Below are positions 27,268 through 54,043 of a DNA stretch of 64,000 nucleotides, piece after piece (positions within the stretch are counted from its first letter, which is position 1; the number at the start of each line of letters is the position of its first letter). Source of the DNA: an uncultured Bacteroidales bacterium (lineage in GTDB: Bacteria; Bacteroidota; Bacteroidia; Bacteroidales; Paludibacteraceae); the NCBI GenBank assembly GCA_902792535.1, contig CADAZU010000007.1, forward strand, positions 5,968-69,967. Direction: 5' to 3'. Made by a program: the position numbers and the translations under genes. The notes beneath the pieces were generated by a model. That model worked only from the letters and a program-made list of their open reading frames with translations, was not told the origin of the DNA and did no database searches.

Positions 27268-27299
27268 CAAAATTACTAAAAATAGATGAATTACGCAAA
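27268..27299 (-). promoter_or_regulatory. Canonical promoter (TTTG-N20-TAatTTTG) for the EF-hand protein gene
   Basis: The -7 box is the reverse complement of 27268..27275. The -33 is the reverse complement of 27296..27299. The ATG at 27229 lies about 39 nt downstream. Confidence 0.65.
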
Positions 27300-28120: not shown

Positions 28121-28216
28121 TATATATTTTTGCGATTGCAAAGGTAGCAATAAATTTTGATTTATGCAAATAAAAGTACATTTTTTTGCAATAATGGGGG
28201 ATTGACAAGGCGCAGT

Positions 28217-36836: not shown

Positions 36837-36868
36837 CAAAGGTACGAAAAAAATCCCACATACGCAAA
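36837..36868 (-). promoter_or_regulatory. Canonical promoter (TTTG-N20-TAccTTTG) for the GT28-like gene
   Basis: The -7 box is the reverse complement of 36837..36844. The -33 is the reverse complement of 36865..36868 and lies in the loop of the upstream terminator hairpin. Confidence 0.6.
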
Positions 36869-38110: not shown

Positions 38111-41100
38111 TTATCGGAGCATAAACTTACCTCCTTTGGCGATCTTGCGGGTCTTAGAATCGAAGAAGACGTAGAAGTAAATATGCTCGGGTTTCGCCTG
38201 GAAGTAAGCACCTGCAGCCGAGGGCAGTGCGTCCACGAGAATCTGGTTTCCTTTCTCATCGATCTCTACCACCACGTCTGCCGGATCGGCGACAGGGATC
38301 TCCTGCAACATCAGCATATGTCCGTTGAGATCGTAGATACCCAATTGGATACCGATACCGATCGTGACACCTTTGTACTGGCCGTCTCCGGCATAGAGGA
38401 AGATATAGTCGTCCGTGTCCACCACAGCGGATGCAGCCCAGTTGGCATAGACGAAATTGAGGATATAGACGATGGTCGTACCATCCTGAGCGGTACAGTA
38501 TATCTCAACGCTCTTGCCATTCTCAATAACGGTCTCCATACCTGCTTCCCACGAAGCGAGCGTGTCCACCGGCACAGCCGTGATCTCCGGAATCTGGGCT
38601 CCCTGCGCAATGACGATGGTATAGGTGAGGGTGTCTCTATGATAGCCGCGTAATTCTTCGCCGTTCAGCCAGATCATATCCAGATGCGCTTCCGAGGAAA
38701 GCAGGATCGACTGGGAGATAGTATAAACGCCTATAGTACCATCCGGCGCGGTCACGAAGATCTGGAGCACGCCTTCGTCCATGGTGACACTCACCGTAGC
38801 GTTCGGATCTTGCGGGATAGCGGTGATTGCCGCAGCGGACAGCAATGCGGTTGAGTCAGTGCCGACCGGATAAACGATCTCGTATTCCTGTACGTCGGCA
38901 TCAAATCCGGCGATCGTCACGCCATTGACCTGCAGGTCTGCCAGATGCCAGTTGGAGGAAAGCAGATGAACGAAGGTAAGCGTATATTCGGAGGTAGTAG
39001 CACCGTCTCCGGCAGTAACGAGGATAGTGAGTTCCGTGTCGCCTACCCAAGTGGTGTCCACTTGCTGTTGTTCGTCCGCCGTCACCCATGTCACCACAGG
39101 CATTTCCGCTCCATAGAGCACCGCGTTCTGATAATTATATTCGGCAGGATCAAAGCCTTCCTGAAGTACTCCGTCAAGGAGAACAGCCGCCAAATCAGAG
39201 TTCTCCGAGGGCAGCCAAGTGAAGGAGAGGGTATAAGTCCGTGTTGTCACGCCATCCTCCGCTGTCACGGTAATGGTATTTCCGGAGACTGCTACCGTTG
39301 CCGCCGGATCTTCCGGCTCCGCTGTGATAGCCGGTGTCTGCGCACCAAACGGCAGAGCAATCGAATAGGACTCCTCGTCGGCATAGAAGGCATAGAGACC
39401 TATGCCGTCCAGCGCTATAGACGCCAGGTTGGCATTGGAGGATTTGGCTATTGTGAATACCACCGAATAGGTAGCGGTATGTACGCCGTCCTCGGCAGTC
39501 ACTACTATTGAAACGGTATTGCCGGTGCTCAGCACCTGCGCCGTGCTCTTGCTGTCCGAAAGAATATAATCCACCTTCGGCAGAGCATCAGTACCATGCG
39601 GCAGTTCTATATTATAGTTATACTTGTCCGGTTGGAAAGCGGGTACGGATTCATTGCCGACCATCAGGTCCGCCAGCGTACATACATCGGACGGAAGCAC
39701 ATCCACCTGAACCGTATAGGTATTCCGAGCCACGCCGTCCTCCGCCGTCACCACGAAGGTGACCGTAGCCGAAGAGCCGTTCTGCACCGTCGTCATTTCC
39801 GCTGTGGCTCCTTCGCATACCACTGCCGCCATAGCAGGTATAGCAGAGCCGGAAGGCAGAGAGAGGGTATAGCTAAACTGATCCGATTGGAATCCCGGGA
39901 TCGACACGCCATCCGCAGAGATTGAAGTGAGGTATGCCCCAGTAGCCGGCGTATGGAGGTGAACCAGCACGGAATAGCGGCTATGTGTTTTGCCATTCGC
40001 GGCAGTAGTCAGCACAAAGACCGCTACGTTTTCTTCGTCTATCCTAACCGTTGTATATTGCACATCCGCATCGGGATCTTGGGCTGTAGCCTCGAACTGG
40101 TCCAAAGATTCGAGCGTAACGGTATAGTCGTAGGTCTCCTCATAGAAGTCCGGCAGCGGCTCAGAGTTGGTGTTTATCGAAGCGAGAAGGGCATTGTCTG
40201 AAGGATGGCGGGCGATAATATAGGTAGTGTCTATTGCCGCTCCGCTACCAAATACATGGAGGTAATAGCAAGTATCGGTAGTCACCATTACAACGCTATC
40301 AAGGGCATATTCGCGGCTGTAGTTCACGATCGGCATCTCCTCCAGATTGACCAGACGGGCGGTGGACGATCCTATGATCGTATTCTCCGCAGGTACGTTG
40401 GTCACAGCGGCGGTGTTGACCGCGCTCTTCTCCCATGCCACATAATATACCTTTTGCGCTCCGCTCTCAGCCGTCACACCGATCACATACGCCGTGTCGT
40501 TGCGACCGATCACAACGGACTGGTAAGGCGAACCCTTGGTCACCGTCAGATCCATGCCATCGAGGGAATAAGTGATGGCAGTATTGGTCGATTTGGGACG
40601 GGTGACGGTCAGCGTATAGTCCGTATAAGAGAGGTTCTCAGCATAGTTGCGGATCGTCGCTGTGCGCACGCCGTTATTCTCCTCCGACCATGTCACAACC
40701 GGCATCTGGTCGGCTACTGCGTGTACGAACGCCAACGTAGGCGTTCCATAACTATCCGCGTCAATCGTAGCACTGATGTTCGTGCCGTCTATCGTTGCAG
40801 CCACGCCGTTCACATTCACGCCGGAAAGAACGGATGAATAGTTCAGACGCAGGTTATCGAAATACATAGAAGAGGTGAATCGGGCAGAAGAAGAAGCACC
40901 GGAAGAACTAATATAATAGTCCTCCAACACATCCGAATGGGCAGAACTAATCAATATATCCAATGTTACCGGTATATAATCCTCGGCATAAGTGATATTT
41001 CGCGAGAGTGTGCTCCATTGGTTCTTGGCCATGGTGTTAAATGCCTGCGAATAATTCACCTGTCTCATTCCATTCGCATTGTATATAAACCGCCAGCCGG

Positions 41101-44100
41101 TCACTTTGTTGTACGCCTGCAGGTTATAGTCGATCGCCACATTGTCCGGGGTGTTGCGGAAAGGAATGGGTTCTCCGAAAGCGAGGGAAGAGTGAATCTC
41201 ATATAGCCATAAAATCCATTTTCCAACCGACACCGTAGGCTGCGACAAGGACAAGAAGCCCGGCATGGACTCCGCCGAGGTCAGCAGCCATATCGTAGCA
41301 AGATTAGCCGCCAGGCTTCCTTCCGTATGTGTGGTGGTGGACTTAGCGGTATTCTCAGGATCATAGGTTCCCGCGTCACCGGAAGTGACGGCATTGATCG
41401 CCGAATACCAGCCGTTGGGGGCTTGACCGTCCGAATTGGTGTTGTCGTTATGATGGGATGTCCAGTTCTCAAATCCGAGATCAAAGGTAATGTCGCCCGG
41501 ATAATAATACGTCACCAAATAAGTGTGTTTGTATTCGCCTTCTTCACCTGCCTCCACAGTCAGTTTGACCCATTTCGCATTAGCATCCTTTTCCACTTCT
41601 GCATCGCTTTGCGCCGTGTAGGTCAATTCCGGCGTCTCGGCGACGGAAAGGACATAATTATACACATCGGGACGGAACTCCGGGATGGACACACCCGCCA
41701 CCTGAATATCCAACAATTGCGCCGGGTCGTACGGATAGACATTGGGCGTCAAGGTATATACCTTGTCTGCTTCGTTCGGGTCAAGCGATTTGACCGTGAT
41801 CACTGTGGGTTCCAATACGCCGCCACCGATAATCGTCACCTCTTGCTCCGGGTAGTTCTTCGCCACCGAGACGACCTCCATCGCGGTCGTGCCATAAGGC
41901 AGATTGATTGTGAAATCCGGTCCTTGGGTCATATCCAGCGCACCTATTCCGTCTAATACGATTGCCGTCAGTTCATTCGCCAAACCGGGCAATGCCACAG
42001 TATAAGAGAAGGAGTATGTAGCCTGCGTGCCGTCTTCGGCGGTCACAACGATCGTGGAGGGTTGACCTATAGGCGCTTCGGTGATTAGGAGCGACTGCTC
42101 CGGCTCTCCCTTTTCTACGGTCAATGCCGGCGACAGGGTCGTGCCGTAAGGGAGCATAATATCCGTATAGGTTTTTGTAGCCGGATCGAAGGAGAAGTTG
42201 ACTCCGTCAATCTCTACAGACGCCAGATCCGTGTTGCTCGATTTGGCAACCGGGAAATCAATGGTATAAGTCCGAGTGGTCGTTTTATCTTCCGCCAAGA
42301 CTTTGATTCGCGTAGGACGGTTGATACCTCCGTGCTCTACGGTGATCGTCTGGCCGGTTGTTGCTGCTACCGGCATGACTGCCGGCACTTGGTAGGTGCG
42401 CCATGGCAACGGATAGGTGTATGAGAGGGTCGCGGGGTCGAACGGATTGTATTTCTCGCCTCCTATGTACAACTCCGCCAGCGTTGCGTCCGACGAAGCA
42501 GGGAAGGAATCCATCGGGAAGGCAGGAATAACCACCTCTTCCGGCGAGTTGAGACGCACCGTATAAGTGTTCGGAGTACCCTCCTCCGGGGTCACCACGA
42601 TGCGCGCTGTACCGTAGGTAGAGGGCGAAACGATTGAGATTTTCTGTCCCTCATTTGCCAGAACGGTCACTTGGGGCATGGTGGCATTATTCCAAACCAG
42701 CGAATAGTCCAGCTGCTCGGGGGTAAAGCCCTCCAGCTCATTGCCGTTCAGATAGATCATTTGCAACAACGCATTCGCCGATTTCTCCACCTCGAATGCG
42801 ATCATATACACCCGCGTCGAGCCGTCGCCCGCCGTGACGGTCAGACGGACTGTCATTTGCGACTGGTTCACCGCCAAAGCCACCTGCTGGTAAGTATCTC
42901 CGGGTGTATAGGTTACCGTCGGCATGTTCTTTGTGCCAGCAGGCAAAGAGACGGTATAGTTCAGCGTGTCGGAGTGGAACGCCTCCATCGGTTCGCCATC
43001 CAACGCTATGCCGGCTAAGGCATTATTGGTCGATTTCTCGGTCTGGAAAAGCAGCCTATAGGTAGTCTTCGCGCCGCTTGCTGCGGTCACTACGATCCGC
43101 GTCGTGCCGTCCACGCCGCCTTCCGTCATCTCGACCGTCTGGTAGTTATCGCCCTTGGTGAAAGCGATCGCCGGCAGGGCAGTCGTGCCTAACGGCAGAG
43201 TGATGGTATAGAGCGTTTTCTCCGGAGCGAAGTCCGCTATCGGTTCGCCGTCCAGCGTGATACCCGCCAGATAGGAATAAGAAGACGCTTCTATTTTGTA
43301 TGTAATCTTATAGGTCTTGCTGAGCGTAGAGCCGGGTATGGAAACTTGGACTTGTGCGCCGGAGGCAAGGGTGTTGCTGAGCAATTGGATATTCTGCACT
43401 CCGTCCGGGTATGCCGACTGCCATGTGATCGCCGGAGCGTCTGTCGTGCCCAAAGGCAGCGAAACGGTATAGTTCGACTTGGTAGGTTGGAAGCCAGGCA
43501 GGAGCGAACCGTCGAGGTAGATCGCTTGCAGCGTCACGTCCGTCAATGGAGCTACCGAGAAATTGACCGTATAAGTCTGGGTCGTCGTACCGTCGCCTGC
43601 GGTCACAGAGACCGTAGCTGTTCCAGTGGTAGAAGTAGCCTGAGTGACCGAAACTGTTGCGGAGCCGTCCTGCGCAGAGGCGGTCACTTGCGGCACTTCG
43701 GTCGTGCCGTACGGCAGCGCTACGTTGTAATTCGTCAGATAAGCGTTGAAACCGTTCACCGTCTGACCGTTCACCTGCAGGTCTGCCAGACGGGCGTTGT
43801 TGCTCGCCTGCGAGACAAACTTGATCCGATAGGTGGTAGTAGTGCTACCATCCTCCGCCCGCACGGTAATGACGGTAGGCGCGCCGTCGACTTGACCATA
43901 CGTGATTGTACATTCCGCATCGGTCAAACGGCGTCCCGGGAAATTCGCTCTACCTCCACGTGTATTGGTCAATGAACCTGCTCCGCGGACACAAGTGATT
44001 GTTGGCATTTGTGTAACTCCCACACCTAATGAACATATCTGTTCGTCCGTATTATCGGGATCGAAGCCTTTCCACTCCTTGTTGGTCACGCCGTTGTTGA

Positions 44101-44971
44101 GGTATATCTTTTGCACCTTGCTGGAATAGATCAGCGAGATGTCGTCCACGTCCAGCGAAGATCCTGCATACTGTCCGCTATTAGCGCGGAAATCCGGATA
44201 GCGCCCCGCAGAGAGAATGACGTTGCATTTCTCCGGCACATCGTCATTGAAATAGTAGATCGGCACGGTGATCTTCGTCCAGTTGGGGTATGCTTTTTTC
44301 TCGTAATACCAACCTTCGGCAATCTGTTTGGCTTGTACGGCAGTACCGCACTCATTGCCGTCCAGAGCCTGACGAATATCGGATTCCTCATCAATGGTAT
44401 ATTCCGGATGCGATCCCGACACGTCGGTACAGGAGAGGTTCTTCGCCTTGAACGAAGAAGCACGCGAAGTACCGCTCCAGGCATAGTACAGCAGGTTGAA
44501 ATTCTCATCTGCGGTATGGTCACCCGCCGCATTGTCCACCGAACTATCATAGTACCGCTTGATCCATACGACCATCGAGTCCGGTCTGTTCGTCCAGCTA
44601 ATACCGCCATACGTGCCTGCCGTGGCATCTTCAATCGATGTGAGGCTCGATACATACGCCCATGGGTGTCCCAACGAGACATACCCCGGAGAAGTGGCCC
44701 CAATGCCCAACGCTCCGACAAACTGGTCCTGGATCTTGAGCGCGGAGCCGGACCTACCCGTCGTCTTATGGGCGAAATTGAATTCTACTTTCAACTGGCT
44801 TACATTGGAGAAATTCCAGTATTTAGGCTGCGCCGAACTTTTGAACTGGGCACCCGACCAGTCCTCAAACCCAGGATCGGGGAACTGAAAATTATCCGCA
44901 CTAACAGCCAAAGGAATTGCCATCCATGCGAAACAGAATAATAAAAGCTTAAAGAATTTACTCATATTCAT
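38111..44971 (-). CDS. Giant (2286 aa) secreted surface protein: signal peptide, PCMD-like domain, ~10 cadherin-like beta-sandwich repeats, second PCMD-like domain, ~10 more repeats, T9SS-like C-terminal tail
   Basis: Signal peptide MNMSKFFKLLLFCFAWMAIPLAVSA. PCMD-like N-termini DNFQFPDPGFEDWSG (aa ~26-282; 44126..44896) and ITFDLGFENWTSH (aa ~1158-1378; 40838..41500). About 80-88-aa repeats of the type L..L.V.G..I.GF.P....Y.V.LPYGT...P.VTA.......V.V......T.I.VTAEDG.T..TY.+.F. The C-terminal ~80 aa (IYDLNGHMLMLQEI...FMLR) resembles a Por/T9SS sorting domain. Confidence 0.85.
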   Translation of the reverse strand: MNMSKFFKLLLFCFAWMAIPLAVSADNFQFPDPGFEDWSGAQFKSSAQPKYWNFSNVSQLKVEFNFAHKTTGRSGSALKIQDQFVGALGIGATSPGYVSLGHPWAYVSSLTSIEDATAGTYGGISWTNRPDSMVVWIKRYYDSSVDNAAGDHTADENFNLLYYAWSGTSRASSFKAKNLSCTDVSGSHPEYTIDEESDIRQALDGNECGTAVQAKQIAEGWYYEKKAYPNWTKITVPIYYFNDDVPEKCNVILSAGRYPDFRANSGQYAGSSLDVDDISLIYSSKVQKIYLNNGVTNKEWKGFDPDNTDEQICSLGVGVTQMPTITCVRGAGSLTNTRGGRANFPGRRLTDAECTITYGQVDGAPTVITVRAEDGSTTTTYRIKFVSQASNNARLADLQVNGQTVNGFNAYLTNYNVALPYGTTEVPQVTASAQDGSATVSVTQATSTTGTATVSVTAGDGTTTQTYTVNFSVAPLTDVTLQAIYLDGSLLPGFQPTKSNYTVSLPLGTTDAPAITWQSAYPDGVQNIQLLSNTLASGAQVQVSIPGSTLSKTYKITYKIEASSYSYLAGITLDGEPIADFAPEKTLYTITLPLGTTALPAIAFTKGDNYQTVEMTEGGVDGTTRIVVTAASGAKTTYRLLFQTEKSTNNALAGIALDGEPMEAFHSDTLNYTVSLPAGTKNMPTVTYTPGDTYQQVALAVNQSQMTVRLTVTAGDGSTRVYMIAFEVEKSANALLQMIYLNGNELEGFTPEQLDYSLVWNNATMPQVTVLANEGQKISIVSPSTYGTARIVVTPEEGTPNTYTVRLNSPEEVVIPAFPMDSFPASSDATLAELYIGGEKYNPFDPATLSYTYPLPWRTYQVPAVMPVAATTGQTITVEHGGINRPTRIKVLAEDKTTTRTYTIDFPVAKSSNTDLASVEIDGVNFSFDPATKTYTDIMLPYGTTLSPALTVEKGEPEQSLLITEAPIGQPSTIVVTAEDGTQATYSFSYTVALPGLANELTAIVLDGIGALDMTQGPDFTINLPYGTTAMEVVSVAKNYPEQEVTIIGGGVLEPTVITVKSLDPNEADKVYTLTPNVYPYDPAQLLDIQVAGVSIPEFRPDVYNYVLSVAETPELTYTAQSDAEVEKDANAKWVKLTVEAGEEGEYKHTYLVTYYYPGDITFDLGFENWTSHHNDNTNSDGQAPNGWYSAINAVTSGDAGTYDPENTAKSTTTHTEGSLAANLATIWLLTSAESMPGFLSLSQPTVSVGKWILWLYEIHSSLAFGEPIPFRNTPDNVAIDYNLQAYNKVTGWRFIYNANGMRQVNYSQAFNTMAKNQWSTLSRNITYAEDYIPVTLDILISSAHSDVLEDYYISSSGASSSARFTSSMYFDNLRLNYSSVLSGVNVNGVAATIDGTNISATIDADSYGTPTLAFVHAVADQMPVVTWSEENNGVRTATIRNYAENLSYTDYTLTVTRPKSTNTAITYSLDGMDLTVTKGSPYQSVVIGRNDTAYVIGVTAESGAQKVYYVAWEKSAVNTAAVTNVPAENTIIGSSTARLVNLEEMPIVNYSREYALDSVVMVTTDTCYYLHVFGSGAAIDTTYIIARHPSDNALLASINTNSEPLPDFYEETYDYTVTLESLDQFEATAQDPDADVQYTTVRIDEENVAVFVLTTAANGKTHSRYSVLVHLHTPATGAYLTSISADGVSIPGFQSDQFSYTLSLPSGSAIPAMAAVVCEGATAEMTTVQNGSSATVTFVVTAEDGVARNTYTVQVDVLPSDVCTLADLMVGNESVPAFQPDKYNYNIELPHGTDALPKVDYILSDSKSTAQVLSTGNTVSIVVTAEDGVHTATYSVVFTIAKSSNANLASIALDGIGLYAFYADEESYSIALPFGAQTPAITAEPEDPAATVAVSGNTITVTAEDGVTTRTYTLSFTWLPSENSDLAAVLLDGVLQEGFDPAEYNYQNAVLYGAEMPVVTWVTADEQQQVDTTWVGDTELTILVTAGDGATTSEYTLTFVHLLSSNWHLADLQVNGVTIAGFDADVQEYEIVYPVGTDSTALLSAAAITAIPQDPNATVSVTMDEGVLQIFVTAPDGTIGVYTISQSILLSSEAHLDMIWLNGEELRGYHRDTLTYTIVIAQGAQIPEITAVPVDTLASWEAGMETVIENGKSVEIYCTAQDGTTIVYILNFVYANWAASAVVDTDDYIFLYAGDGQYKGVTIGIGIQLGIYDLNGHMLMLQEIPVADPADVVVEIDEKGNQILVDALPSAAGAYFQAKPEHIYFYVFFDSKTRKIAKGGKFMLR

Positions 44972-45169: not shown

Positions 45170-46246
45170 TTATTGCCCGACCCGATGGAGGTGGCAAAGC
45201 ATGAGCGAACCGTCTTCGCGTCGAAGGTGCATGCCGTTTCCTTCGCAGAAGGTCCAGGCTTTGCAGTCCTTGCAAGGTTCGGACTGCTTCATCCATGTGC
45301 GATCGCGGTAAGGTTTGAAGCCGTGCTCCCAGACAGACCAGAAGGAATCGCGGTATATATTCCCTTGGTAATACTTGCCGCGGATGGAGGTGCACGCAGA
45401 GATAGAGCCGTCAATGAGGATAGACGCAATTGAGATCCCTGCTGCACATTGGTAGAGGTGGTCGCGGACACGCCCTTCGTAAGTGCCGAGATAGCCTTCG
45501 CAGGAATAAGAGACATGACGCCCGGCCTCGCGTTCGGAGACGATAAAATCCATGAGGTATCGGAACTGCTCGTCGGTCAGTAGGAGTTCGGGATTGGAGG
45601 CAGCGCGTCCCATCGGGTCAATGCCAAAGACACGCCAGTCTCGCACGCCGAGCGACCAGAGCATATCGCGGATCTCGGGCAAGTGGTCTATCGTGCGCTG
45701 GTTAACGCAGGTGACGACATCGAAAGCGAGGGAGGGAGTAGAAGCATTGTGGTCAATTATCAATTTAATGGCGCGAGTGGCACCTTCGAAAGCAAGCGGG
45801 TGTTGGCGAAGCCAGATGTGGTCTTTTTCGAGTCCGTCGCAAGAGACCGTAATAGAACGGAGTCCGGCGGAGACGAGTTCGTCGAAGCGCTCTTGGGTGA
45901 GTGCCAAGCCGTTTGTGACCATTCCCCAAGGGTAGCCGCGCGATTTAAGAGCCCGTCCTATGTCGGCGAGGTCTTTGCGCATGAGTGGTTCGCCGCCGGA
46001 AATGATGATTAAAACTTCGTGGGGATTGACATGCGGAGTAACCTCCGTGTCTATGACATGGAGAAAATCTTCGGCAGGCATATCGGGTGTCTCGACCGAG
46101 GCGATGCAATCGCTGCCGCAATGGAGGCAATGGACATTACAACGGAGCGTGGACTCCCAAAAGAGCTGGCGAAGAGGGTGCAGTTCCTTGAGGTTTCGCC
46201 TCCTCAGGCTTTCGAGCCACAAGGCTATTTTCAGACGCATTTTCAC
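45170..46246 (-). CDS. Radical SAM enzyme with C-terminal SPASM/twitch-like auxiliary Fe-S domain
   Basis: CNVHCLHC (CX3CX2C) at 46118..46141, verified codon by codon. GGEPLM. C-terminal CAAGISIASILIDGSISAC (CX12GX4C) and CKDCKAWTFC (CX2CX5C) plus a further Cys. The start is GTG 46246 (GTGA overlap with the upstream stop) or ATG 46240. Confidence 0.9.
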   Translation of the reverse strand: MKMRLKIALWLESLRRRNLKELHPLRQLFWESTLRCNVHCLHCGSDCIASVETPDMPAEDFLHVIDTEVTPHVNPHEVLIIISGGEPLMRKDLADIGRALKSRGYPWGMVTNGLALTQERFDELVSAGLRSITVSCDGLEKDHIWLRQHPLAFEGATRAIKLIIDHNASTPSLAFDVVTCVNQRTIDHLPEIRDMLWSLGVRDWRVFGIDPMGRAASNPELLLTDEQFRYLMDFIVSEREAGRHVSYSCEGYLGTYEGRVRDHLYQCAAGISIASILIDGSISACTSIRGKYYQGNIYRDSFWSVWEHGFKPYRDRTWMKQSEPCKDCKAWTFCEGNGMHLRREDGSLMLCHLHRVGQ

Positions 46247-46452
46247 AGGTTTTCCTCCACGATAGATGTCGATGGTACTTCTTGTTGCACTTGTTCAGGT
46301 ACCGGAATTCCATACTCCGGTACAGGGCCATAGAGCACTTGCGGATCATCCGGCACTCCGTATTTTTGCATAGGTTCACAAGCCGCGAAGCCGAGAGCAC
46401 TTAACAACATGACGATTAGCGCATTAGCGCGGGTTAAGATTTTCTTTTTCAT
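46243..46452 (-). CDS. 69-aa lipoprotein-like peptide P1 with three YG.P motifs (candidate radical SAM substrate)
   Basis: MKKKILTRANALIVMLLSALGFAAC|EPMQKYGVPDDPQVLYGPVPEYGIPVPEQVQQEVPSTSIVEENL. Has a lipobox. ATGA overlap with the upstream gene. Clear paralog of P2. Confidence 0.7.
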   Translation of the reverse strand: MKKKILTRANALIVMLLSALGFAACEPMQKYGVPDDPQVLYGPVPEYGIPVPEQVQQEVPSTSIVEENL

Positions 46453-46922
46453 AATTCAAAATTAACTGTGGCATAGCCGTTATACGGTATTTTTTGATTT
46501 TGTACCAAAGCGGTGTCATAGGTAACGGGAGCAAAGATATACTGCTGGGGATATAGACCGGTTGAATCGGTCGCTACAACAGTTATTTCCGTAGGCACTT
46601 CGCGTCCGCGGTATCGGATAATCGTATATCGTCCGAGCGAGTCCGTGATCGAATAATTATAGGTCAGGATATCCGGTTCGTTCGGTTCACGTACGCCGGG
46701 CAGAGAGACATATATTCCGCTGAGCGGCTGGGATGCCGTATTGGTAACCGTGCCGTTTACAATCAGGCGGGGGCTCGCAGAAGTATAATGTCCTGCTGAC
46801 TCCGTTTCGCCCGGATTCACGATCCATACACCGCCATCTACATCCGTCGGAGAGTTCGCTTTACATCCGGCAAAACCGCTGCATAACGCAATTAAAAACA
46901 ATATGTATATATTCTTTCTCAT
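46449..46922 (-). CDS. Lipoprotein with carboxypeptidase-regulatory-like beta-sandwich domain
   Basis: 157 aa with lipobox ...SGFAGC. IVNGTVTNTASQPLSGIYVSL...ITDSLGRYTI fits a CarboxypepD_reg-like fold. ATGA overlaps at both ends. Confidence 0.65.
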   Translation of the reverse strand: MRKNIYILFLIALCSGFAGCKANSPTDVDGGVWIVNPGETESAGHYTSASPRLIVNGTVTNTASQPLSGIYVSLPGVREPNEPDILTYNYSITDSLGRYTIIRYRGREVPTEITVVATDSTGLYPQQYIFAPVTYDTALVQNQKIPYNGYATVNFEL

Positions 46923-47443
46923 GGCCGTTTGAAAAATTTATACGTTGTAGGACCCAATGTTGTCTCGACACGCAGAAAATAATACCCCGGCGGTAATTGA
47001 CTGATATCCACGTTTCGGTCACTGGCGAACATCAGATGCCCGTTCCAATCGGCCACAATGATTCGCCTTACCCATAGAGAACCGGTAAAATCGGTTTTCC
47101 AGCAACCTATCCGGATGGAATAAAGACCTGTGTGTGTAATCGGGCAAGAGATCTCACCGTAACTGAGTCCGTAGAAATAGTCCTCGTTGTTGCGGTTGCT
47201 TTGCTCCTCCTGTATTACGACATAGGACACGGCTTCTTTCTGCGTTTGGATGAAGAGGGTGTTGCCGGATAGCGACGCCCGGAACTGGTTCGGGTCAGTA
47301 GGATCCGGTGTACTGCCGGTCGGTCCGTCCATCGGCATATAGGCAAAGACCGACATTTTCAGCGGTATAGAGATCGTGTCATTCGCCCGAATGGAGAAAG
47401 AGACGAAGCAAAGGAACACTATGAAAATGAGACGTTTAGGCAT
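46919..47443 (-). CDS. DUF3244-like secreted protein with T9SS-like C-terminal tail
   Basis: Start set to the ATG at 47443 (MPKRLIFIVFLCFVSFSIRA). ...FRASLSGNTLFIQTQKEAVSYVVIQEE...GLYSIRIG...FTGSLWV resembles the DUF3244 pattern. The C-terminus ...VDISQLPPGYYFLRVETTLGPTTYKFFKRP resembles a Por sorting domain. Confidence 0.55.
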   Translation of the reverse strand: MPKRLIFIVFLCFVSFSIRANDTISIPLKMSVFAYMPMDGPTGSTPDPTDPNQFRASLSGNTLFIQTQKEAVSYVVIQEEQSNRNNEDYFYGLSYGEISCPITHTGLYSIRIGCWKTDFTGSLWVRRIIVADWNGHLMFASDRNVDISQLPPGYYFLRVETTLGPTTYKFFKRP

Positions 47444-48695
47444 GGCTGTTGGCGATCGATCGTAAGGTATCTTGCAGCTGTTTGGCACTCACACCAAGCC
47501 GTTTGGCGATGAGGTATTTGTCTTTTCCGATGCCGTTCTCTGCGCGGAAGAGGATCTGCGCCATTTCGGCATAGGAGAAGCCGATGAGGACGAGGACACA
47601 GATGCGGATGTCGCGCTCCGGGAGTCCTCTCTGCTCCAGTTTGGAGACGATGCCAAACAGCAGTTTGTTGCAGATCACAGAGAATTGGCGGTAGTCGTTC
47701 CATTGGAGCTCCGAGCGGATGTCCGGCGATTGGCGGAGGAGACGGCATTGGGCGTCCAGCGCGTTCTTGCGGCGGCTGGAACGGAGATAGAGCCATGCGG
47801 CAAGAGCCAAAAGAAGCAGTATTGCTGTAGCAATAAGCGCGAAGAGGGTTTGGGGTTTCAGAGGCGGCGAATAAGGCTGAAGGGCTTGCTGCGCAAGGAG
47901 CATGGCTTCTATCCATTCGGGGTTGTTGCGTTCCAGCGAACGCTGGATGTCCGCCCTTGCGGACGCCAAGTCGCGGATGTCGTCTGCCGCTGCCGTTGAG
48001 TCACAATGGGTGAGGATATAACAGGCATCGTCCAGATAGCGAGGATTGTCCGTTTCGGCGAGGACTTGGCGGGCATAGAAGAGCGCGGAGTCCTTGTGGT
48101 TCAGGAAGGTATATGCCTGCGCGCGGAGGATGGCAAAATAGGGAGAGGAGTTTTGGGCGAAGTCGAGCGCGGACGTTGGGGCGGAGTCGAGCGCGGGCTT
48201 TGGGGCGGTATAAAAGAGGACGGAGTCGTATTCGGCGGCATAGAGACAAGCGGCGGCGCGAGATTCGAGGACTTTGGTCTGTACGGCTTCGGAGGACGAG
48301 ATGGCAAGGGCTGAGTCGAGAAGTTGAAAGGCGGTTTGTTTGTCCGCAAGGACTGCTTTTTCCCACGCCATATTGTTGAGCGCGAAGGCTTGCGCGAGGG
48401 AGTCTTTTGCGGCTACGAACTGATTGAGGGATTGGCGGTAGAGATCGAAGGCGAGTTCGTGCTGTTCGCCTATCCGGCACATGGTAGCCATGTTGCTGTA
48501 CGAACGTCCTTTGACGGCAAACTCCTCGGACGGAACACGCACGGCGGAGAGAAAAGCCTGCATGGCTTCGACCGGCTGACCGGCTTCGCGGGCTTGTTTG
48601 CCTTGGAGATAATACGACTCGGCTGTCGGCGAAGCACAAGCCACCGACAGCAGGAGAAAGAGAGAGAGGAATCCTATTTGACGATGCGCGCGCAT
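47436..48695 (-). CDS. Membrane-spanning regulator: lipoprotein-type signal, periplasmic TPR-like domain, one TM helix, cytoplasmic LuxR/HTH-like domain
   Basis: 419 aa. ...LLLSVAC signal, TPR-like helices, TM LFALIATAILLLLALAAWLYL. C-terminus ...LPERDIRICVLVLIGFSYAEMAQILFRAENGIGKDKYLIAKRLGV.... Same topology as the SusR-like protein at 9513..11057. Confidence 0.65.
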   Translation of the reverse strand: MRAHRQIGFLSLFLLLSVACASPTAESYYLQGKQAREAGQPVEAMQAFLSAVRVPSEEFAVKGRSYSNMATMCRIGEQHELAFDLYRQSLNQFVAAKDSLAQAFALNNMAWEKAVLADKQTAFQLLDSALAISSSEAVQTKVLESRAAACLYAAEYDSVLFYTAPKPALDSAPTSALDFAQNSSPYFAILRAQAYTFLNHKDSALFYARQVLAETDNPRYLDDACYILTHCDSTAAADDIRDLASARADIQRSLERNNPEWIEAMLLAQQALQPYSPPLKPQTLFALIATAILLLLALAAWLYLRSSRRKNALDAQCRLLRQSPDIRSELQWNDYRQFSVICNKLLFGIVSKLEQRGLPERDIRICVLVLIGFSYAEMAQILFRAENGIGKDKYLIAKRLGVSAKQLQDTLRSIANSHA

Positions 48696-48880
48696 CAGTC
48701 GTTCACCGGCGATTGAGGGGTCTCTACGACCTCCTCGGGGGTCGGGATACCGTACATCGGCATAGGAGGATCGGGAGAGCCGTACTTAACCAAGGGTTCC
48801 TTGCAACCGCTGAGTCCCAGCAGGGACAGGATTGCCGCGCCCAAGAAGGCGTTTGTGCGAGTTAAAAGTTTCTTTCTCAT
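48695..48880 (-). CDS. 61-aa lipoprotein-like peptide P2 with YG.P motifs (paralog of P1)
   Basis: MRKKLLTRTNAFLGAAILSLLGLSGC|KEPLVKYGSPDPPMPMYGIPTPEEVVETPQSPVND. ATGA overlap with P3 and a 1-nt TGATG overlap with the regulator gene. Confidence 0.65.
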   Translation of the reverse strand: MRKKLLTRTNAFLGAAILSLLGLSGCKEPLVKYGSPDPPMPMYGIPTPEEVVETPQSPVND

Positions 48881-49086
48881 AATGATTCATTATTATCGGA
48901 TGTGTCGTTTGCAACGGAACGGAGTTGCTGCTCCATTTTCTGCTGGTCTTTTTGGAAGTCCGGTTCGTTCTGCCAATATCTTTCCGACGGCGCCGGTCCA
49001 TAGCAGGCAGCGAAGGTGAATGCCACGCCGGTAAGCAGGCAGAGTTTGATGCCGAGTCGGAGGAATGTGTCAATCAGTTTGCGCAT
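48877..49086 (-). CDS. 69-aa lipoprotein-like peptide P3
   Basis: Start set to the ATG at 49086, downstream of the promoter. MRKLIDTFLRLGIKLCLLTGVAFTFAAC|YGPAPSERYWQNEPDFQKDQQKMEQQLRSVANDTSDNNESL. Confidence 0.55.
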   Translation of the reverse strand: MRKLIDTFLRLGIKLCLLTGVAFTFAACYGPAPSERYWQNEPDFQKDQQKMEQQLRSVANDTSDNNESL

Positions 49087-49112: not shown

Positions 49113-49144
49113 CAAAGGTAGTGCTTTTTAAAGATATATGCAAA
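49113..49144 (-). promoter_or_regulatory. Canonical promoter (TTTG-N20-TAccTTTG) for the P3-P2-regulator-...-radical SAM operon
   Basis: The -7 box is the reverse complement of 49113..49120. The -33 is the reverse complement of 49141..49144. It shares the extended -33 word AATTTGCATATATC with the promoter at 49840..49871, and shares AATTTGCATATAT with the nadC promoter. Confidence 0.65.
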
Positions 49145-49839: not shown

Positions 49840-49871
49840 CAAAGATAGTACTTTTTTTTGATATATGCAAA
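49840..49871 (-). promoter_or_regulatory. Canonical promoter (TTTG-N20-TAtcTTTG) about 200 nt upstream of the 142-aa ORF
   Basis: The -7 box is the reverse complement of 49840..49847. The -33 is the reverse complement of 49868..49871. Confidence 0.6.
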
Positions 49872-50025: not shown

Positions 50026-51015
50026 ATGCAAGTAGATATCAGAGAATTGCAAGAGCGCGTGGAACGCGAGAGTTCTTTTGTGGATGCCTTGACGTTAGGC
50101 ATGAACCAAGTGATCGTAGGTCAGAAGCACCTCGTGGAGAGTTTGCTAATCGGTCTGCTGAGTGACGGGCATATATTGTTGGAAGGAGTGCCGGGCTTGG
50201 CTAAGACCTTAGCAATTAAGACATTGAGCGACCTCATCAAGGCGGATTTCAGTCGTATTCAGTTCACTCCGGATCTGCTGCCAGCCGATGTACTCGGTAC
50301 GCAGATTTACAGCCAGAAAAGCGAAGAATTCAAGATCAAGAGAGGTCCGATCTTCGCTAATTTTGTGCTGGCAGACGAGATCAACCGTGCTCCGGCGAAA
50401 GTGCAGAGCGCGTTGCTGGAGGCGATGCAGGAGCGTCAAGTGACGATCGGCGAGGAGACGTTCAAGCTGGACGATCCGTTCCTGGTTCTTGCCACCCAGA
50501 ACCCGATTGAGCAGGAAGGAACTTATCCTCTGCCGGAAGCGCAGACCGACCGTTTCATGCTGAAAGTGGTGATCGGTTACCCGAAGAAAGAGGAGGAGCA
50601 GGCCATCATCCGTCAGAACATTGCGAGCGAGAAAAAGACCGTTCTGCCGATCTTGAGCACGACGGATATTATCAAGGCGCGCAAGGTGGTCGAGGAGGTT
50701 TACCTGGACGAGAAGATCGAGAAATACATCGTCGATATCGTGTTTGCGACCCGCCAGCCGGAAGAGTACGGACTGAAGGAGTTGAAGCAGATGATCGCTT
50801 TCGGCGGCAGTCCTCGTGCCAGCATCAACCTCGCGAAGGCAGCGCGCGCGTACGCGTTTATTCATAGGAGAGGATACGTGACGCCGGAGGATGTGCGTGC
50901 TGTTTGCTACGACGTGCTGAGACACCGAATCGGCCTGACGTACGAAGCCGAGGCGAATAACATGACGACGGAGGATATTATTACCGAAGTATTAAACGCC
51001 GTACAGGTACCTTAA
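50026..51015 (+). CDS. MoxR family AAA+ ATPase
   Basis: 329 aa. Motifs: LLEGVPGLAKT (Walker A), FSRIQFTPDLLPADVLGT, VLADEINRAPAKVQSALLEAMQERQVTIG. Confidence 0.95.
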   Translation: MQVDIRELQERVERESSFVDALTLGMNQVIVGQKHLVESLLIGLLSDGHILLEGVPGLAKTLAIKTLSDLIKADFSRIQFTPDLLPADVLGTQIYSQKSEEFKIKRGPIFANFVLADEINRAPAKVQSALLEAMQERQVTIGEETFKLDDPFLVLATQNPIEQEGTYPLPEAQTDRFMLKVVIGYPKKEEEQAIIRQNIASEKKTVLPILSTTDIIKARKVVEEVYLDEKIEKYIVDIVFATRQPEEYGLKELKQMIAFGGSPRASINLAKAARAYAFIHRRGYVTPEDVRAVCYDVLRHRIGLTYEAEANNMTTEDIITEVLNAVQVP

Positions 51016-51040
51016 GGTTTTTGTTTTTTCGCGGTGTCTC

Positions 51041-51096
51041 CGGCTTTTCGGTTCGGTCATTATGGACCCCATAACTCCCTCACCGGAAAAACCAAA
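51041..51096. repeat. Copy 1 of a 56-58-bp intercistronic element (CGGCTTTTCGGTTCGGTCATTATGGACCCCATAACTCCCTCACCGGAAAAACC...)
   Basis: Nearly identical to 55822..55879, with weaker similarity extending about 25 bp on each side. Here it is nested in an outer inverted repeat TTTTTCGCG (51026..51034) / CGCGAAAAA (51102..51110). Confidence 0.9.
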
Positions 51097-51133
51097 TCCA
51101 CTCGCGAAAAATTCAAAAACAAGAAATTACTAA
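51062..51133 (+). CDS. Possible 23-aa micro-ORF inside repeat copy 1 (MDPITPSPEKPNPLAKNSKTRNY)
   Basis: An ATG-initiated frame conserved with 55843..55920. Ends 13 nt before the DUF58 start. Speculative. Confidence 0.2.
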   Translation: MDPITPSPEKPNPLAKNSKTRNY

Positions 51134-51146
51134 TGAGGCATATTTT

Positions 51147-52031
51147 ATGACTTCAGAAGAGTTATTACAGAAAGTTCGGAAGATAGAGATCAAGACACAC
51201 GGTTTGAGTCGGAATATCTTCGCAGGCGAGTACCACAGCCAATTCAAAGGCCGCGGTATGGCGTTCAGCGAGGTGCGCGAATACCAGCCGGGTGACGATG
51301 TTCGGTCGATCGACTGGAACGTGACCGCCCGTATGAACCGACCCTATATCAAAGTCTATGAAGAGGAGCGCGAGTTGACGGTGATGTTGCTTGTCGATGT
51401 CAGCGGAAGCCGTAATTTTGGCACAGTAAGCCAGATGAAACGCGACACGATTGCCGAAGTAGCCGCGACACTCGCATTCTCGACCATAGAGAACAACGAC
51501 AAGGTGGGCGTGATCTTCTTCAGCGACCAAGTGGAGAAATTTATTCCTCCCAAGAAAGGCAAGAGTCATGTGCTGCATATCATTCGCGAGCTGCTGAGCT
51601 TCGAGCCGGAGCACCATGGGACGGATCTGAATGCGGCTCTTCAATACCTGACGAACGCGCAGAAGAGACGGTGTACGGCGTTTGTGATAAGCGATTTCAT
51701 AACCCCACCCCAACCCTCCCCTCAAGGGAGGGGGCACGTAGATCCGGTGGTGATCGCGAGCCGGAAGCACGACCTGAGTGCTATACAGATATACGACCGG
51801 CGGGACGCGGAGCTGCCGGATGTGGGGCTGCTGAAAGTGAAAGACCCGGAGACGGGTGCACGCGTTTGGACAGACACGTCCGTGGCGAGTGTGCGCAAGG
51901 CTTATGCCGAGGCATGGCGGGCTCAACAGGCGGCACTCGAAGAGATGTACAACAAGACCGGCATGAACCATGTCGAGATCCGGACGGATGAAGACTATGT
52001 GAAGGCTTTAATGAGATTGTTTAAGAACTAG
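51147..52031 (+). CDS. DUF58 domain protein (MoxR-associated, VWA-like)
   Basis: 294 aa. FSEVREYQPGDDVRSIDWNVTAR, LLVDVSGS. In-frame GC-rich element insertion ...TPPQPSPQGRGH.... Confidence 0.9.
   Translation: MTSEELLQKVRKIEIKTHGLSRNIFAGEYHSQFKGRGMAFSEVREYQPGDDVRSIDWNVTARMNRPYIKVYEEERELTVMLLVDVSGSRNFGTVSQMKRDTIAEVAATLAFSTIENNDKVGVIFFSDQVEKFIPPKKGKSHVLHIIRELLSFEPEHHGTDLNAALQYLTNAQKRRCTAFVISDFITPPQPSPQGRGHVDPVVIASRKHDLSAIQIYDRRDAELPDVGLLKVKDPETGARVWTDTSVASVRKAYAEAWRAQQAALEEMYNKTGMNHVEIRTDEDYVKALMRLFKN
51703..51735. repeat. GC-rich hairpin element (CCCCACCCCAACCCTCCCCTCAAGGGAGGGGGC) in-frame in the DUF58 gene
   Basis: Stem CCCTCCC/GGGAGGG with loop CTCAA. Same 5' CCCCACCC arm as 12643..12673. 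Confidence 0.8.
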
Positions 52032-52064
52032 TCAAACCAGTCGAACTAGTTAAACTAGAATAAT

Positions 52065-53030
52065 ATGTTACAAAATATTTTATTAGCGATAGTAGTGAGT
52101 GCGAGTATCGACTCGACGATGCTGATGATCGGCGACCAGACGGACATGCACTTGAGCGTGACGCACGAGGCGGGCGAACAAGTGGAATGGCCTGCTTTCG
52201 GCGAGCAGTTGCAGGAAGGCATTGAGATCGTCGATCGCACGACACCGGACACCACTACCCTGCCCGACGGACGCGTTCAGATACACCAGGATCTGAAGCT
52301 GACGAGTTTCAAGGACAGCCTTTTTTCGATCAGCCCGATAGCCATCGCCAGCGGCGAGGACACTTTCCGGACGGATCCCATGGCGCTGAACGTCATTCAG
52401 CCGTTTGAGGTGGACACGACGCTCGCTATCACCGATATCAAGGACATCGAGCGGGCACCGATCTATTGGTGGGGTATCATCCGTTGGATTTTGCTCGTGC
52501 TGCTGAGTTGCGGACTGATCGCACTCGGTTTCTGGCTCTGGCGCAAGTACGACACTTACCGTCAACGCGAAGAAGAGCCGATCGATCCTGAGTTGCTGCG
52601 TCCGGCAGACGAGGTGGCTTTGGAGAAACTGGACGAGATCAAGGCGGCGAAGATCTGGAAGGACGGTAAGGTGAAGGAATACCAGACCGAGCTGACCGAC
52701 GTCGTGCGCGAGTACATCAGCCGGCGTTTCGGCGTGCAGAGCACGGAGAAGACGAGCGAAGAGACTCTGCGAGAATTGGAGCCAATTCTCGTTAAGGGAC
52801 AAAGGGACGATGTACAATGTACAAAGGAGGAGGGGAAAGCGCTTTATGAGCGGTTGGCAGGCATGTTGCGGACAGCGGACCTCGTGAAATTCGCCAAATG
52901 GCACACCACGCCGGACGAGAACGAGAGCGCTCTGACGACCGCTTATGACTTTGTGAAAGAGACAAAGGAAGTACCAAGTGACCAAGTACCAAGTGACCAA
53001 GTACCAAGTACAAAGGAGGAGGAATTATGA
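52065..53030 (+). CDS. Bat-operon membrane protein (BatD-like N-terminus, one TM, DUF4381-like C-terminal region)
   Basis: 321 aa. TM IIRWILLVLLSCGLIALGFWLW. ...ALEKLDEIK...VREYISRRFGV...T.EE... resembles DUF4381. Contains word-repeat insertions at 52794..52833 and 52959..53022. Confidence 0.6.
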   Translation: MLQNILLAIVVSASIDSTMLMIGDQTDMHLSVTHEAGEQVEWPAFGEQLQEGIEIVDRTTPDTTTLPDGRVQIHQDLKLTSFKDSLFSISPIAIASGEDTFRTDPMALNVIQPFEVDTTLAITDIKDIERAPIYWWGIIRWILLVLLSCGLIALGFWLWRKYDTYRQREEEPIDPELLRPADEVALEKLDEIKAAKIWKDGKVKEYQTELTDVVREYISRRFGVQSTEKTSEETLRELEPILVKGQRDDVQCTKEEGKALYERLAGMLRTADLVKFAKWHTTPDENESALTTAYDFVKETKEVPSDQVPSDQVPSTKEEEL

Positions 53031-54013
53031 CATTTGCTAATCCGGGATATTTATTCTTATTGCTGCTGCTGTTCCCTATCATCGGCTGGTATTGGTATGA
53101 GTTGCGGAAAGCCGACGCGAGTGTTCAGATCAGCGACACTCGAACGCTGGCAGCGCAACCCAAGAGCTGGCGGGTTTGGATGCTGCACGTGCCGTTTTTG
53201 CTGCGCGTAGCGGTAGTGACCTTATTATCTCTCGCGCTCGCGCGACCGCAGTTGACCAACCGCTGGTCGTCGGAGAGCACGGAGGGAATAGACATTATGA
53301 TGGCACTCGATATATCGGGTACGATGCTGGCGGAGGATCTGCGACCGAACCGTCTGGAAGCAGCCAAACAAGTGGCGTCGGATTTCGTGATCGCCCGTCC
53401 AAATGACCAGATCGGTCTGGTTGTTTTCGCCGGCGAGAGCTTCACCCAATGTCCGCTGACGACCGACCATGCGGTGCTCGTGAACCTGTTCAAATCCGTT
53501 GAATACGGCATGATCGAAGACGGAACGGCGATCGGTCTGGGTCTCGCGAACGCTGTGAACCGCATGAAAGACAGCAAGACGAAATCGAAAGTGGTGATTC
53601 TGCTGACCGACGGTAGTAACAACCGCGGCGACATCGACCCGCAGACGGCAGCGGAGATCGCCAAGAGTTTCGACATCCGTGTTTATACGGTCGGCGTCGG
53701 CAGTTACGGTCAGACGCGCGTGCCGGTGAACACGCCGATGGGACGTCAGTACGTGACGATGGATTCGGAGTTCGACGAAGGGACACTTCGCCGCATTGCC
53801 GAGACGACCGGCGGTCAGTATTTCCGCGCGACGGACAACGGAAGTTTGAAACGCATCTACGAGCAGATCGACCAGTTGGAGAAGACCAAGTTGCGCGTGC
53901 GGGAGTATTCGAAACACACGGAGAACTTCGCGCCGTTCCTGTATGCGGCATTGATCTGCCTGCTGCTGGAAGTGATTTTGCGCTATTTCGTGCTACGCAC
54001 GATTAGCAATTAG
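53027..54013 (+). CDS. batA: Aerotolerance protein BatA (TM + von Willebrand factor A domain)
   Basis: 328 aa. MALDISGTMLAEDLRPNRLEAAK, VILLTDGSNN. Position in the operon supports the call. Confidence 0.88.
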   Translation: MTFANPGYLFLLLLLFPIIGWYWYELRKADASVQISDTRTLAAQPKSWRVWMLHVPFLLRVAVVTLLSLALARPQLTNRWSSESTEGIDIMMALDISGTMLAEDLRPNRLEAAKQVASDFVIARPNDQIGLVVFAGESFTQCPLTTDHAVLVNLFKSVEYGMIEDGTAIGLGLANAVNRMKDSKTKSKVVILLTDGSNNRGDIDPQTAAEIAKSFDIRVYTVGVGSYGQTRVPVNTPMGRQYVTMDSEFDEGTLRRIAETTGGQYFRATDNGSLKRIYEQIDQLEKTKLRVREYSKHTENFAPFLYAALICLLLEVILRYFVLRTISN

Positions 54014-54043
54014 AGATTTGAAGATTTGAAAATTTGAAGATTC

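Follow-up and report, generated by a model that had tools for sequence, protein, structure and literature searches.

Domain-less Tyr-Gly-x-Pro lipoproteins beside a TIGR04133 radical SAM/SPASM enzyme in a Bacteroidales operon: an unrecognised variant of the TIGR04134 lineage and a candidate enzyme target

We analysed a 64-kb stretch of DNA (hereafter, the window) from an uncultured Bacteroidales bacterium of the Paludibacteraceae, focusing on a group of genes that contains a radical S-adenosylmethionine (rSAM)/SPASM enzyme and three small lipoprotein precursors, named P1, P2, and P3. All coordinates are positions in the window, and the genes of this group all lie on the minus strand. They are transcribed in the order P3, P2, a 419-aa tetratricopeptide repeat (TPR) protein, a 174-aa secreted protein, a 157-aa lipoprotein (lip157), P1, and the rSAM/SPASM enzyme. 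Stop and start codons overlap by 4 nt between lip157 and P1 as well as between P3 and P2, and by 1 nt between P2 and the TPR gene, while a gap of 2 nt separates P1 from the rSAM gene. Identical proteins in identical gene order were found on independent metagenome contigs, as predicted by independent gene callers. The nearest genomes were metagenome-assembled genomes of Paludibacteraceae/Bacteroidales from rumen and gut.

P1 (46243..46452, minus strand) encodes a 69-aa lipoprotein precursor with the lipobox FAAC, three Tyr-Gly units (KYGVP, LYGPVP, and EYGIP; span KYGVPDDPQVLYGPVPEYGIP, 46303..46365), and an acidic tail. P2 (48695..48880, minus strand) encodes a 61-aa precursor with the lipobox LSGC and two Tyr-Gly-x-Pro (YG.P) units, KYGSP and MYGIP (span KYGSPDPPMPMYGIP, 48743..48787). 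Both were recognised by a hidden Markov model (HMM) of the family N-terminus, with 68 and 66 bits, respectively. A first-pass annotation of this DNA had described the two as paralogous through the signal peptide and as carrying repeated YG.P motifs. Both descriptions hold: the spans were confirmed by translation, and the BLASTP alignment (composition-corrected; 29 identities out of 57 positions, 51%, E 2e-16) is the one that had been drawn by eye. When the whole window was translated in six frames (81,335 aa, counting segments of at least 40 aa), YG.P occurred 14 times, and P1 and P2 were the only two segments with at least two copies; this confirmed that the repetition is far from chance.

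Small open reading frames (ORFs) of this size may be spurious, a possibility that was ruled out here by purifying selection, by the independent gene calls, and by the number of homologue clusters (at least 25 for P1 and 74 for P3). Using codon comparisons, we found that the ratio of nonsynonymous to synonymous differences (pN/pS) was 0.10-0.20 in the signal peptides versus 0.25-0.55 in the mature parts, with pS ranging from 0.35 to 1.0. As pN/pS is well below 1 over saturated synonymous divergence, these small ORFs are translated genes, and purifying selection is stronger on the signal peptides than on the mature parts. A nucleotide-level cause of the signal-peptide conservation, such as RNA structure, was ruled out by the pS values observed there; since synonymous sites vary, the constraint acts at the protein level. 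Among 26 P1 homologues (25 clusters), K30-Y31-G32 was invariant and L40-Y41-G42-P43 was conserved in at least 90%, while the third Tyr-Gly unit was missing from 3 of the 26. With regard to export, we looked for a basic n-region, a hydrophobic h-region, and a lipobox of the form [LVI][ASTVI][GAS]C. P2 displays L-S-G-C, and both P1 and P3 display F-A-A-C, a variant with Phe at position -3 that is kept across homologues. By these features, both P1 and P2 qualify as bona fide precursors of small lipoproteins, with lipidation predicted.

The last gene of the group (45170..46240, minus strand) encodes an rSAM/SPASM enzyme of 356-358 aa. SPASM enzymes act mostly on peptides or proteins. With 517.7 bits against a cut-off of 425, Pfam matches to Radical_SAM and SPASM, a Cx3Cx2C motif at C36/C40/C43, and seven cysteines in the SPASM part, all of them invariant in 82 orthologues, the enzyme belongs to TIGR04133. 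Among the NCBIfam matches listed (25 of 69), this was the only family whose cut-off was passed; the best other match reached 110 bits against a cut-off of 725. A search of PDB sequences with the enzyme returned distant relatives only (BlsE, MoaA, and PqqE), with a full-length match to PqqE. In the SPASM part, residues 325-351 of the enzyme read Cx2Cx5C, without the usual fourth Cys three residues on, and the upstream Cys249 is invariant; one auxiliary cluster of the enzyme may thus have an unusual or open ligand position. The enzyme has no N-terminal extension of a size to hold a leader-binding domain of the RRE type. The lack of such an extension fits direct recognition of a motif, as in the anaerobic sulfatase-maturating enzyme, anSME (PMC7771511; PMC10114670).

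TIGR04133 ("rSAM_w_lipo") has a curated partner, TIGR04134 ("radical SAM-associated putative lipoprotein"), whose profile of 150 positions describes proteins of about 150 aa. Together they form the "rSAM/lipoprotein system" of NCBIfam, in which both are hypothetical equivalogs with the function left blank. The link to the rSAM gene proposed in the first-pass annotation is therefore upheld, whereas the pair itself is not new, since it is already curated. Literature searches for TIGR04133/TIGR04134, for rSAM-lipoprotein pairs in Bacteroidetes, and for the pentapeptides returned nothing relevant from the library searched; the lone match to TIGR04134 was apparently a mistaken accession for a type B domain of type IX secretion systems (T9SS).

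P1 and P2 fall below the TIGR04134 cut-off of 39.8 bits: P1 scored 12.1 bits over profile positions 2-36, and P2 gave no match. This sub-threshold scoring leads to their annotation as hypothetical proteins, as is the case for the one close P1 relative that bears a source name. In contrast, the gene directly 5' of the orthologous rSAM gene in sister genomes (L031, L055, L058, and L068) scored 85-93 bits on TIGR04134 and exhibited the family signal peptide and an xYG.P unit. P1 and P2 share with these canonical members the signal peptide and the first xYG.P unit, and P1 abuts the enzyme in the same way, whereas P2 lies 2.4 kb upstream in the same operon. They differ in their length (61-69 aa), in their extra Tyr-Gly units and acidic tail, and in the absence of the transthyretin-like domain ending in DFQLKKK: a CarboxypepD_reg/transthyretin-like beta-sandwich takes about 100 aa, and P1 and P2 stop 20-35 aa past the last Tyr-Gly unit. 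When the P1/P2 profile was aligned with the canonical-family profile using hhalign, the two matched over residues 1-43 with a probability of 98.6% (E 8e-16). Moreover, an exhaustive HMMER search with the P1/P2 profile against 1.84 billion representatives retrieved 96 proteins, among which 73 were new short forms (39-121 aa) and about 20 were canonical proteins (133-169 aa), several of them already retrieved with a canonical, TIGR04134-type profile. At least 73 distinct short forms are thus known. We conclude that P1 and P2 are almost certainly domain-less members of the TIGR04134 lineage, which either lost the beta-sandwich domain or never had one. They represent an unrecognised domain-less variant of the lipoprotein partner, and the P3 family is a further group of small lipoproteins tied to these loci.

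Across short and canonical forms, the unit reads [V/A/C][K/L/M/E]-Y-G-[V/P/I/T/C]-P, with Pro at +3 in 68-92% of units. In the mature parts of the short forms, 74-78% of all Tyr residues precede Gly. A database search found at least one YG.P in 119 of 120 canonical proteins and at least two in 73 of the 120; among the short forms, 55 out of 73 had at least two. Tyr-Gly is the constant core of the unit. The invariance that the first-pass annotation proposed to look for applies to Tyr-Gly, but not to the Pro at +3, which varies in distant rSAM-adjacent forms.

The family signal peptide of P1 and P2 reads M-K-K-K-x-L-T-R-x-N-A...L-G-F-x-x-C and is followed by a tether with 2-3 units and an acidic tail. 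The canonical consensus is MK.K.LT.INA.IA.LL..LGF..C...KYG.P...EYG(V/T/C)P(Y/H)A, after which comes a beta-sandwich ending in DFQLKKK. That the n-region is unusually conserved for a signal peptide, as had been remarked earlier, was borne out: an Asn located 11-19 residues before the lipobox Cys was present in 24 of 25 P1 homologues and 95 of 97 canonical relatives, versus 34 of 117 other lipoprotein-like ORFs and 1 of 74 P3 proteins, and is a hallmark of the family. Among 164 lipoprotein-like ORFs surveyed in roughly 1 Mb of sequence, 51 had YG.?P no more than 20 aa from the lipobox Cys, all of them 175 aa or less in length. YG.P as a general tether motif of Bacteroidales lipoproteins was ruled out in the sequence surveyed, as none of the 37 lipoprotein-like ORFs longer than 175 aa had it. 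A D-[S/T]-[A/I/L/V/M/T] triplet, which is the Bacteroidetes O-glycosylation sequon, was observed 1-4 residues before a Tyr-Gly unit in 23 of the 73 short forms (P0224-P0306; for example, DTTVxxMYGVP). P1 and P2 of the window do not have this triplet.

A canonical member was modelled with AlphaFold (AF2; mean pLDDT 80.7). In the model, the signal-peptide helix covers residues 4-19, residues 23-40, which include the first unit, form a low-confidence tether (pLDDT < 55), and the second unit stands immediately ahead of the first strand of the sandwich, which begins at P43. According to this model, the Tyr-Gly units would lie in a disordered tether and at the domain edge. A structure search identified the fold as a generic transthyretin/carboxypeptidase-regulatory/CnaB-like sandwich, which suggested no specific function.

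To describe the genomic association, we read the gene ending at the enzyme start in 80 loci around orthologous enzymes (76-98% identity) and counted the neighbours by hand. Upstream sequence was available for 78 loci, and in about 58 of these a short, canonical, or P3-type small lipoprotein abutted the rSAM start. Four kinds of neighbours were observed: canonical lipoproteins of 138-151 aa (7 loci); short lipoproteins of the P1 type, 60-140 aa long, sharing this kind of signal peptide and having 2-6 Tyr-Gly units (about 45 loci); domain-only lipoproteins like lip157 (6 loci); and P3-type proteins (6 loci). The beta-sandwich domain is thus dispensable beside the enzyme, while the signal peptide and the Tyr-Gly units persist. 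Ahead of the enzyme, some loci carried two successive pairs of a P3-type and a P1/P2-type gene or a tandem of two short forms, and the number of small genes varied among close relatives (L010 4895-6004, L011 2709-3542, and L086 2291-2776). Such multiple copies per locus agree with one of the two earlier suggestions for P1 and P2, that of a substrate family.

The context was also sampled from the family side, using eight members taken from databases, with at most 4 kb recovered per side and several contigs of just 1-3 kb. One of the eight abutted a TIGR04133 gene (P0233 in L086, with an 80-aa sibling; enzyme 581 bits). Short YG.P genes without an rSAM gene in the recovered DNA were located at L085 4001-4228, L090 1508-1720, L088 737-1159, L092 535-753, and L093 1855-2022.

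P3 (48877..49086, minus strand; ATG at 49086) encodes a 69-aa small lipoprotein precursor in which YGPAP comes right after the signal peptide, GIKLCLLTGVAFTFAAC, so that at the junction, CYGPAP (48988..49005, minus strand), the lipobox Cys precedes Tyr-Gly-Pro. This junction, noted earlier from the sequence, is real, as shown by translation and conservation. Its interpretation as the remainder of a P1/P2-type protein did not hold, since P3 belongs to a separate family: the P3 profile matched the P1/P2 profile with a hhalign probability of 28%, confined to the h-region and lipobox, and a degenerate P1/P2 paralogue was thereby ruled out. The P3 family comprises 74 homologue clusters, with proteins about 65 aa long. 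Alignment of 26 members showed C28 and Y29 to be invariant and G30 and P31 to be at least 90% conserved; for P3, pN/pS was 0.10 over the signal peptide and 0.30 over the mature part. On this comparison, P3 represents a distinct conserved family of small lipoproteins that occurs at rSAM loci. The Cys...Tyr-Gly-Pro that P3 has in common with P1 and P2 is either convergent or too short for judgement.

A predicted Bacteroidetes-type promoter, TTTG-N20-TACCTTTG (49113..49144, minus strand; consensus TTTG-N20-TAnnTTTG), is located 27 nt 5' of the P3 ATG. Its consensus is that of the Bacteroides promoter literature. The pattern TTTGN{19,21}TANNTTTG had seven matches in the window versus 0.29 expected by chance, and these TTTG-N19-21-TAnnTTTG matches are probably real promoters of the host genome. 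They lie at 21079-21110, 27268-27299, 28139-28170, 36837-36868, 49113-49144, and 49840-49871 on the minus strand, and at 54025-54056 on the plus strand; five of the seven start with TTTGC(A/G)TA. A scan for sigma-70 promoters and terminators gave no more matches than chance. The match at 49113..49144 likely marks the start of the operon. Because there is no match to the consensus between P3 and the rSAM gene, the genes from P3 to the enzyme are most simply read as one operon, which the promoter and the tight gene packing both support. Alternative versions of the P3 ORF, of 88 aa and 119 aa, are unlikely, since their starts fall inside or upstream of the promoter match.

Between P2 and P1, three further genes were found. 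The TPR protein (47436..48695, minus strand; 419 aa) has a lipobox-type signal peptide, TPR repeats (TPR_12, E 1.7e-6), and one transmembrane segment, and its C-terminal segment is highly conserved (ERExRICVLVLIGxSYAEMA...GIGKDKYxIAKxLGVS). A helix-turn-helix (HTH) in this protein was not confirmed by Pfam or PDB sequence searches, in which the C-terminal 109 aa matched HTH_10 at E 0.044 only; it may be a membrane-spanning regulator, with a C-terminus that is HTH-like by eye but unconfirmed. The 174-aa secreted protein (46919..47443, minus strand), predicted by gene calling, exhibits a near-threshold T9SS C-terminal sorting domain (TIGR04183, 21.2 bits versus a cut-off of 23). The third protein, lip157 (46449..46922, minus strand), carries a signal peptide of its own, lacks YG.P, and has a weak CarboxypepD_reg match and 24.2 bits on TIGR04134, with residues 42-125 matching profile positions 29-112. 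By this match, it is related, in divergent form, to the TIGR04134 beta-sandwich domain, which is here encoded by a separate gene. The block of TPR protein, 174-aa protein, and lip157-type lipoprotein travels together (L031 8207-10315, L047 172-1859, and L055 3450-5916), and in other genomes it sits away from the short lipoproteins or the enzyme. On the 3' side of the rSAM gene, after a gap of 200 nt, a 2286-aa cadherin-like protein (38111-44971, minus strand) has at least eight cadherin-like beta-sandwich repeats; a homologue was found 3' of the enzyme in about 30 related loci. Divergent from the operon, at 50026-54013 on the plus strand, genes for a MoxR-type AAA ATPase, a DUF58 protein, a DUF4381-like protein, and a VWA protein stand in a row, which looks like a Bat-like (aerotolerance-type) operon.

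Since the domain-less forms keep just the signal peptide and the Tyr-Gly units beside the enzyme, these units are the leading candidate for its target. By analogy with anSME, and with this natural deletion series as the main support, YG.P may well be what the neighbouring enzyme acts on, a reading to which we give a little less than an even chance. A cytoplasmic, oxygen-sensitive rSAM/SPASM enzyme would then recognise the Tyr-Gly-x-Pro units as short linear stretches of the precursor while it is still unfolded and modify them through H-atom abstraction ahead of Sec export, as anSME does for exported sulfatases. Once exported, the product would receive its lipid at the lipobox Cys and be cleaved by signal peptidase II, to be displayed on a membrane, and the conserved Asn and n-region of the signal peptide may aid recognition or slow export. 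Candidate chemistries include a Tyr-to-X3 C-beta cyclophane, another Tyr cross-link, and modification of the residue after Gly; by motif resemblance, the cyclophane would be one possibility among several. A broader proposal, which we regard as rather improbable, is that modified YG.P lipoproteins constitute a lipidated class similar to peptides that are made on the ribosome and modified after translation (RiPPs). Such a class would combine cytoplasmic radical modification by a SPASM enzyme, a signal peptide whose invariant Asn serves as a recognition or timing element, anchoring of the radically cross-linked peptide to the Bacteroidales envelope through Sec/Lgt/LspA, and many substrates encoded in trans, including copies in rnf and V-type ATPase (V-ATPase) operons.

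Several observations weigh against the Tyr-Gly units being the target of the enzyme. The HMM score of the enzyme is as close to those of the tetrapyrrole enzymes AhbD and NirJ2 as to those of peptide maturases. One clade of rSAM-adjacent forms shows drift of the Pro at +3 (LYGVQ, KYGVMxP). About 12 of the 78 rSAM loci lacked a family member within 6 kb. The two closest relatives, whose rSAM is 98% identical, cleanly lack P1 while keeping P2 and P3. In seven of the eight members sampled, no rSAM gene was found in the recovered flanks, although a more distant one is possible. Short forms were instead found in an rnf operon, between rnfC and rnfD and after a hotdog thioesterase; after a similar hotdog thioesterase and before a zeta-toxin-like kinase; as two tandem copies between the genes for V-type ATPase A and B; after V-ATPase A and before an M6 metalloprotease; and near a LysE gene. 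Two canonical members (L094 4001-4429 and L097 4001-4474) also had unrelated neighbours and no rSAM gene within 4 kb, which means that the family has copies away from the enzyme. One of these two carries a JGI label that assigns it to the rSAM/lipoprotein system. This asymmetry fits either one enzyme with scattered substrates or a lipoprotein motif with an enzyme-free role.

The latter role leads to an alternative that we consider a serious rival, although less probable than the main reading: Tyr-Gly-x-Pro would be a structural or docking feature of small lipoproteins and tethers, without radical SAM chemistry. The units might bind a membrane complex or a beta-sandwich paralogue, or serve export or glycosylation, with P1 and P2 as accessory lipoprotein subunits in the style of LptM, and the enzyme would act on the beta-sandwich domain, on one cognate copy only, or on a small molecule. 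The rnf, V-ATPase, and other contexts without an rSAM gene in the recovered DNA, the canonical members without one nearby, and the rSAM loci without any partner are all in line with such a role. So are the sequon ahead of a Tyr-Gly unit in 23 of the 73 short forms, which suggests periplasmic processing, the position of one canonical YG.P exactly at the start of the first beta-strand, and the translational coupling of lip157, a domain-only paralogue, to P1. It agrees less well with the presence of an abutting family member at about three quarters of the enzyme loci and with the definition of the pair by NCBIfam curators. Reiterated units with variable spacing, moreover, suit a recognition motif of an enzyme better than a positional sorting signal, and the weak matches to the LptM model (12-18 bits) cover the signal peptide only. 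Scattered substrates of one enzyme are the norm for anSME (PMC7771511).

The first-pass annotation also suggested a pheromone/decoy pair. In a further alternative, the operon would be a regulatory peptide circuit in which P2 and P3, and perhaps P1, would be signalling or decoy peptides sensed by the TPR membrane protein, with the rSAM enzyme maturing the signal. The overlap of the P2 stop with the TPR start codon and the order P3-P2-TPR or P3-TPR in at least 10 loci speak for it, as does the architecture of the TPR protein, with an exported TPR region, one transmembrane segment, and a conserved C-terminus that by eye resembles an unconfirmed HTH. This HTH is unsupported by Pfam and PDB searches, however, and lipidated products would be anchored rather than diffusible. 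Given also that the TPR-174-aa-lip157 block sits away from P2/P3 and the rSAM gene in L031, L047, and L055, and that most rSAM loci have a short lipoprotein and no TPR gene, we judge such a circuit to be quite improbable. Least probable of all, and hardly credible in our view, is that P1 and P2 are functionless, decaying truncated pseudogenes of full-length TIGR04134 genes. A few short forms in the databases are plainly truncated canonical proteins (P0227, P0238, P0267, and P0277) and P1 is missing from the closest relatives; against this, pN/pS is much lower than 1 with synonymous divergence at saturation, and the 73 or more distinct short forms mostly have acidic tails of their own and no remnant of the domain. 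Furthermore, the rSAM gene starts 2 nt past the P1 stop, which leaves no space for a lost domain, and short forms are the commonest rSAM neighbours (about 45 loci versus 7 with canonical members).

In gut and rumen Bacteroidales, TIGR04133/TIGR04134 stands as a curated radical SAM system with its function left blank. The domain-less forms amount to a natural deletion experiment, in which the peculiar signal peptide and Tyr-Gly-x-Pro remain beside the enzyme, and for an uncharacterised rSAM enzyme of gut and rumen they narrow down the probable target to a defined five-residue unit in a 60-70-aa peptide. Overall, what had been observed in the first-pass annotation was confirmed, and its interpretation was partly supported. 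If the units are modified, radical SAM peptide chemistry would be joined to lipoprotein biogenesis and the pre-export precedent of anSME would be extended; if they are not, there would still be an unannotated group of small lipoproteins that recurs in operons of energy-conserving membrane complexes.

Among the known systems, small lipoproteins such as LptM/YifL act through a short conserved N-terminal stretch and a disordered tail. The likeness to the present proteins lies in the length of 60-70 aa, the lipobox, a nearby Gly/Pro/Tyr stretch, and a disordered tail rich in Pro and acidic residues, and some members of the P1/P2 family are likewise found within membrane-complex operons. Repeated units and rSAM synteny, in contrast, are not features of LptM, and homology was rejected, as the 12-18 bits obtained are below the cut-off of 27.7 and there is no significant similarity past the signal peptide.

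Triceptides are defined by an aromatic to C-beta cross-link on Omega1-X2-X3 motifs, installed by rSAM/SPASM enzymes of the 3-CyFE group (PMC11499958). P1 and P2 resemble their precursors in having reiterated aromatic-X-X units in a short peptide encoded beside an rSAM/SPASM gene, and the Y-G-V/I/P units conform to Omega1-X2-X3, a weak criterion when taken alone. The resemblance to cyclophane substrates pointed out in the first-pass annotation thus stands at the level of the motif, but does not extend to the maturase, which is outside the characterised cyclophane-synthase families among the matches listed. The N-terminus is, moreover, a lipoprotein signal peptide instead of a RiPP leader, and neither the conserved Gly at X2 nor the Pro at X4 belongs to the features of triceptides.

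The best precedent for action of a SPASM enzyme on exported proteins via a short linear motif with Pro is anSME, which has many sulfatase substrates in Bacteroides and binds these mostly through the backbone (PMC7771511; PMC10114670). Shared features, in the reading proposed here, are a SPASM-type rSAM enzyme without a leader-binding domain, targets with a Sec signal, a short linear motif with Pro, and many scattered substrates in gut Bacteroidales. The two differ in the motif, which here is x-Y-G-x-P and requires neither Cys nor Ser, whereas the (C/S)xPxR of sulfatases is absent from P1 and P2, and no anSME model was found among the listed matches of the enzyme. They also differ in the substrates, which here would be tiny lipoproteins and not enzymes in need of a catalytic residue.

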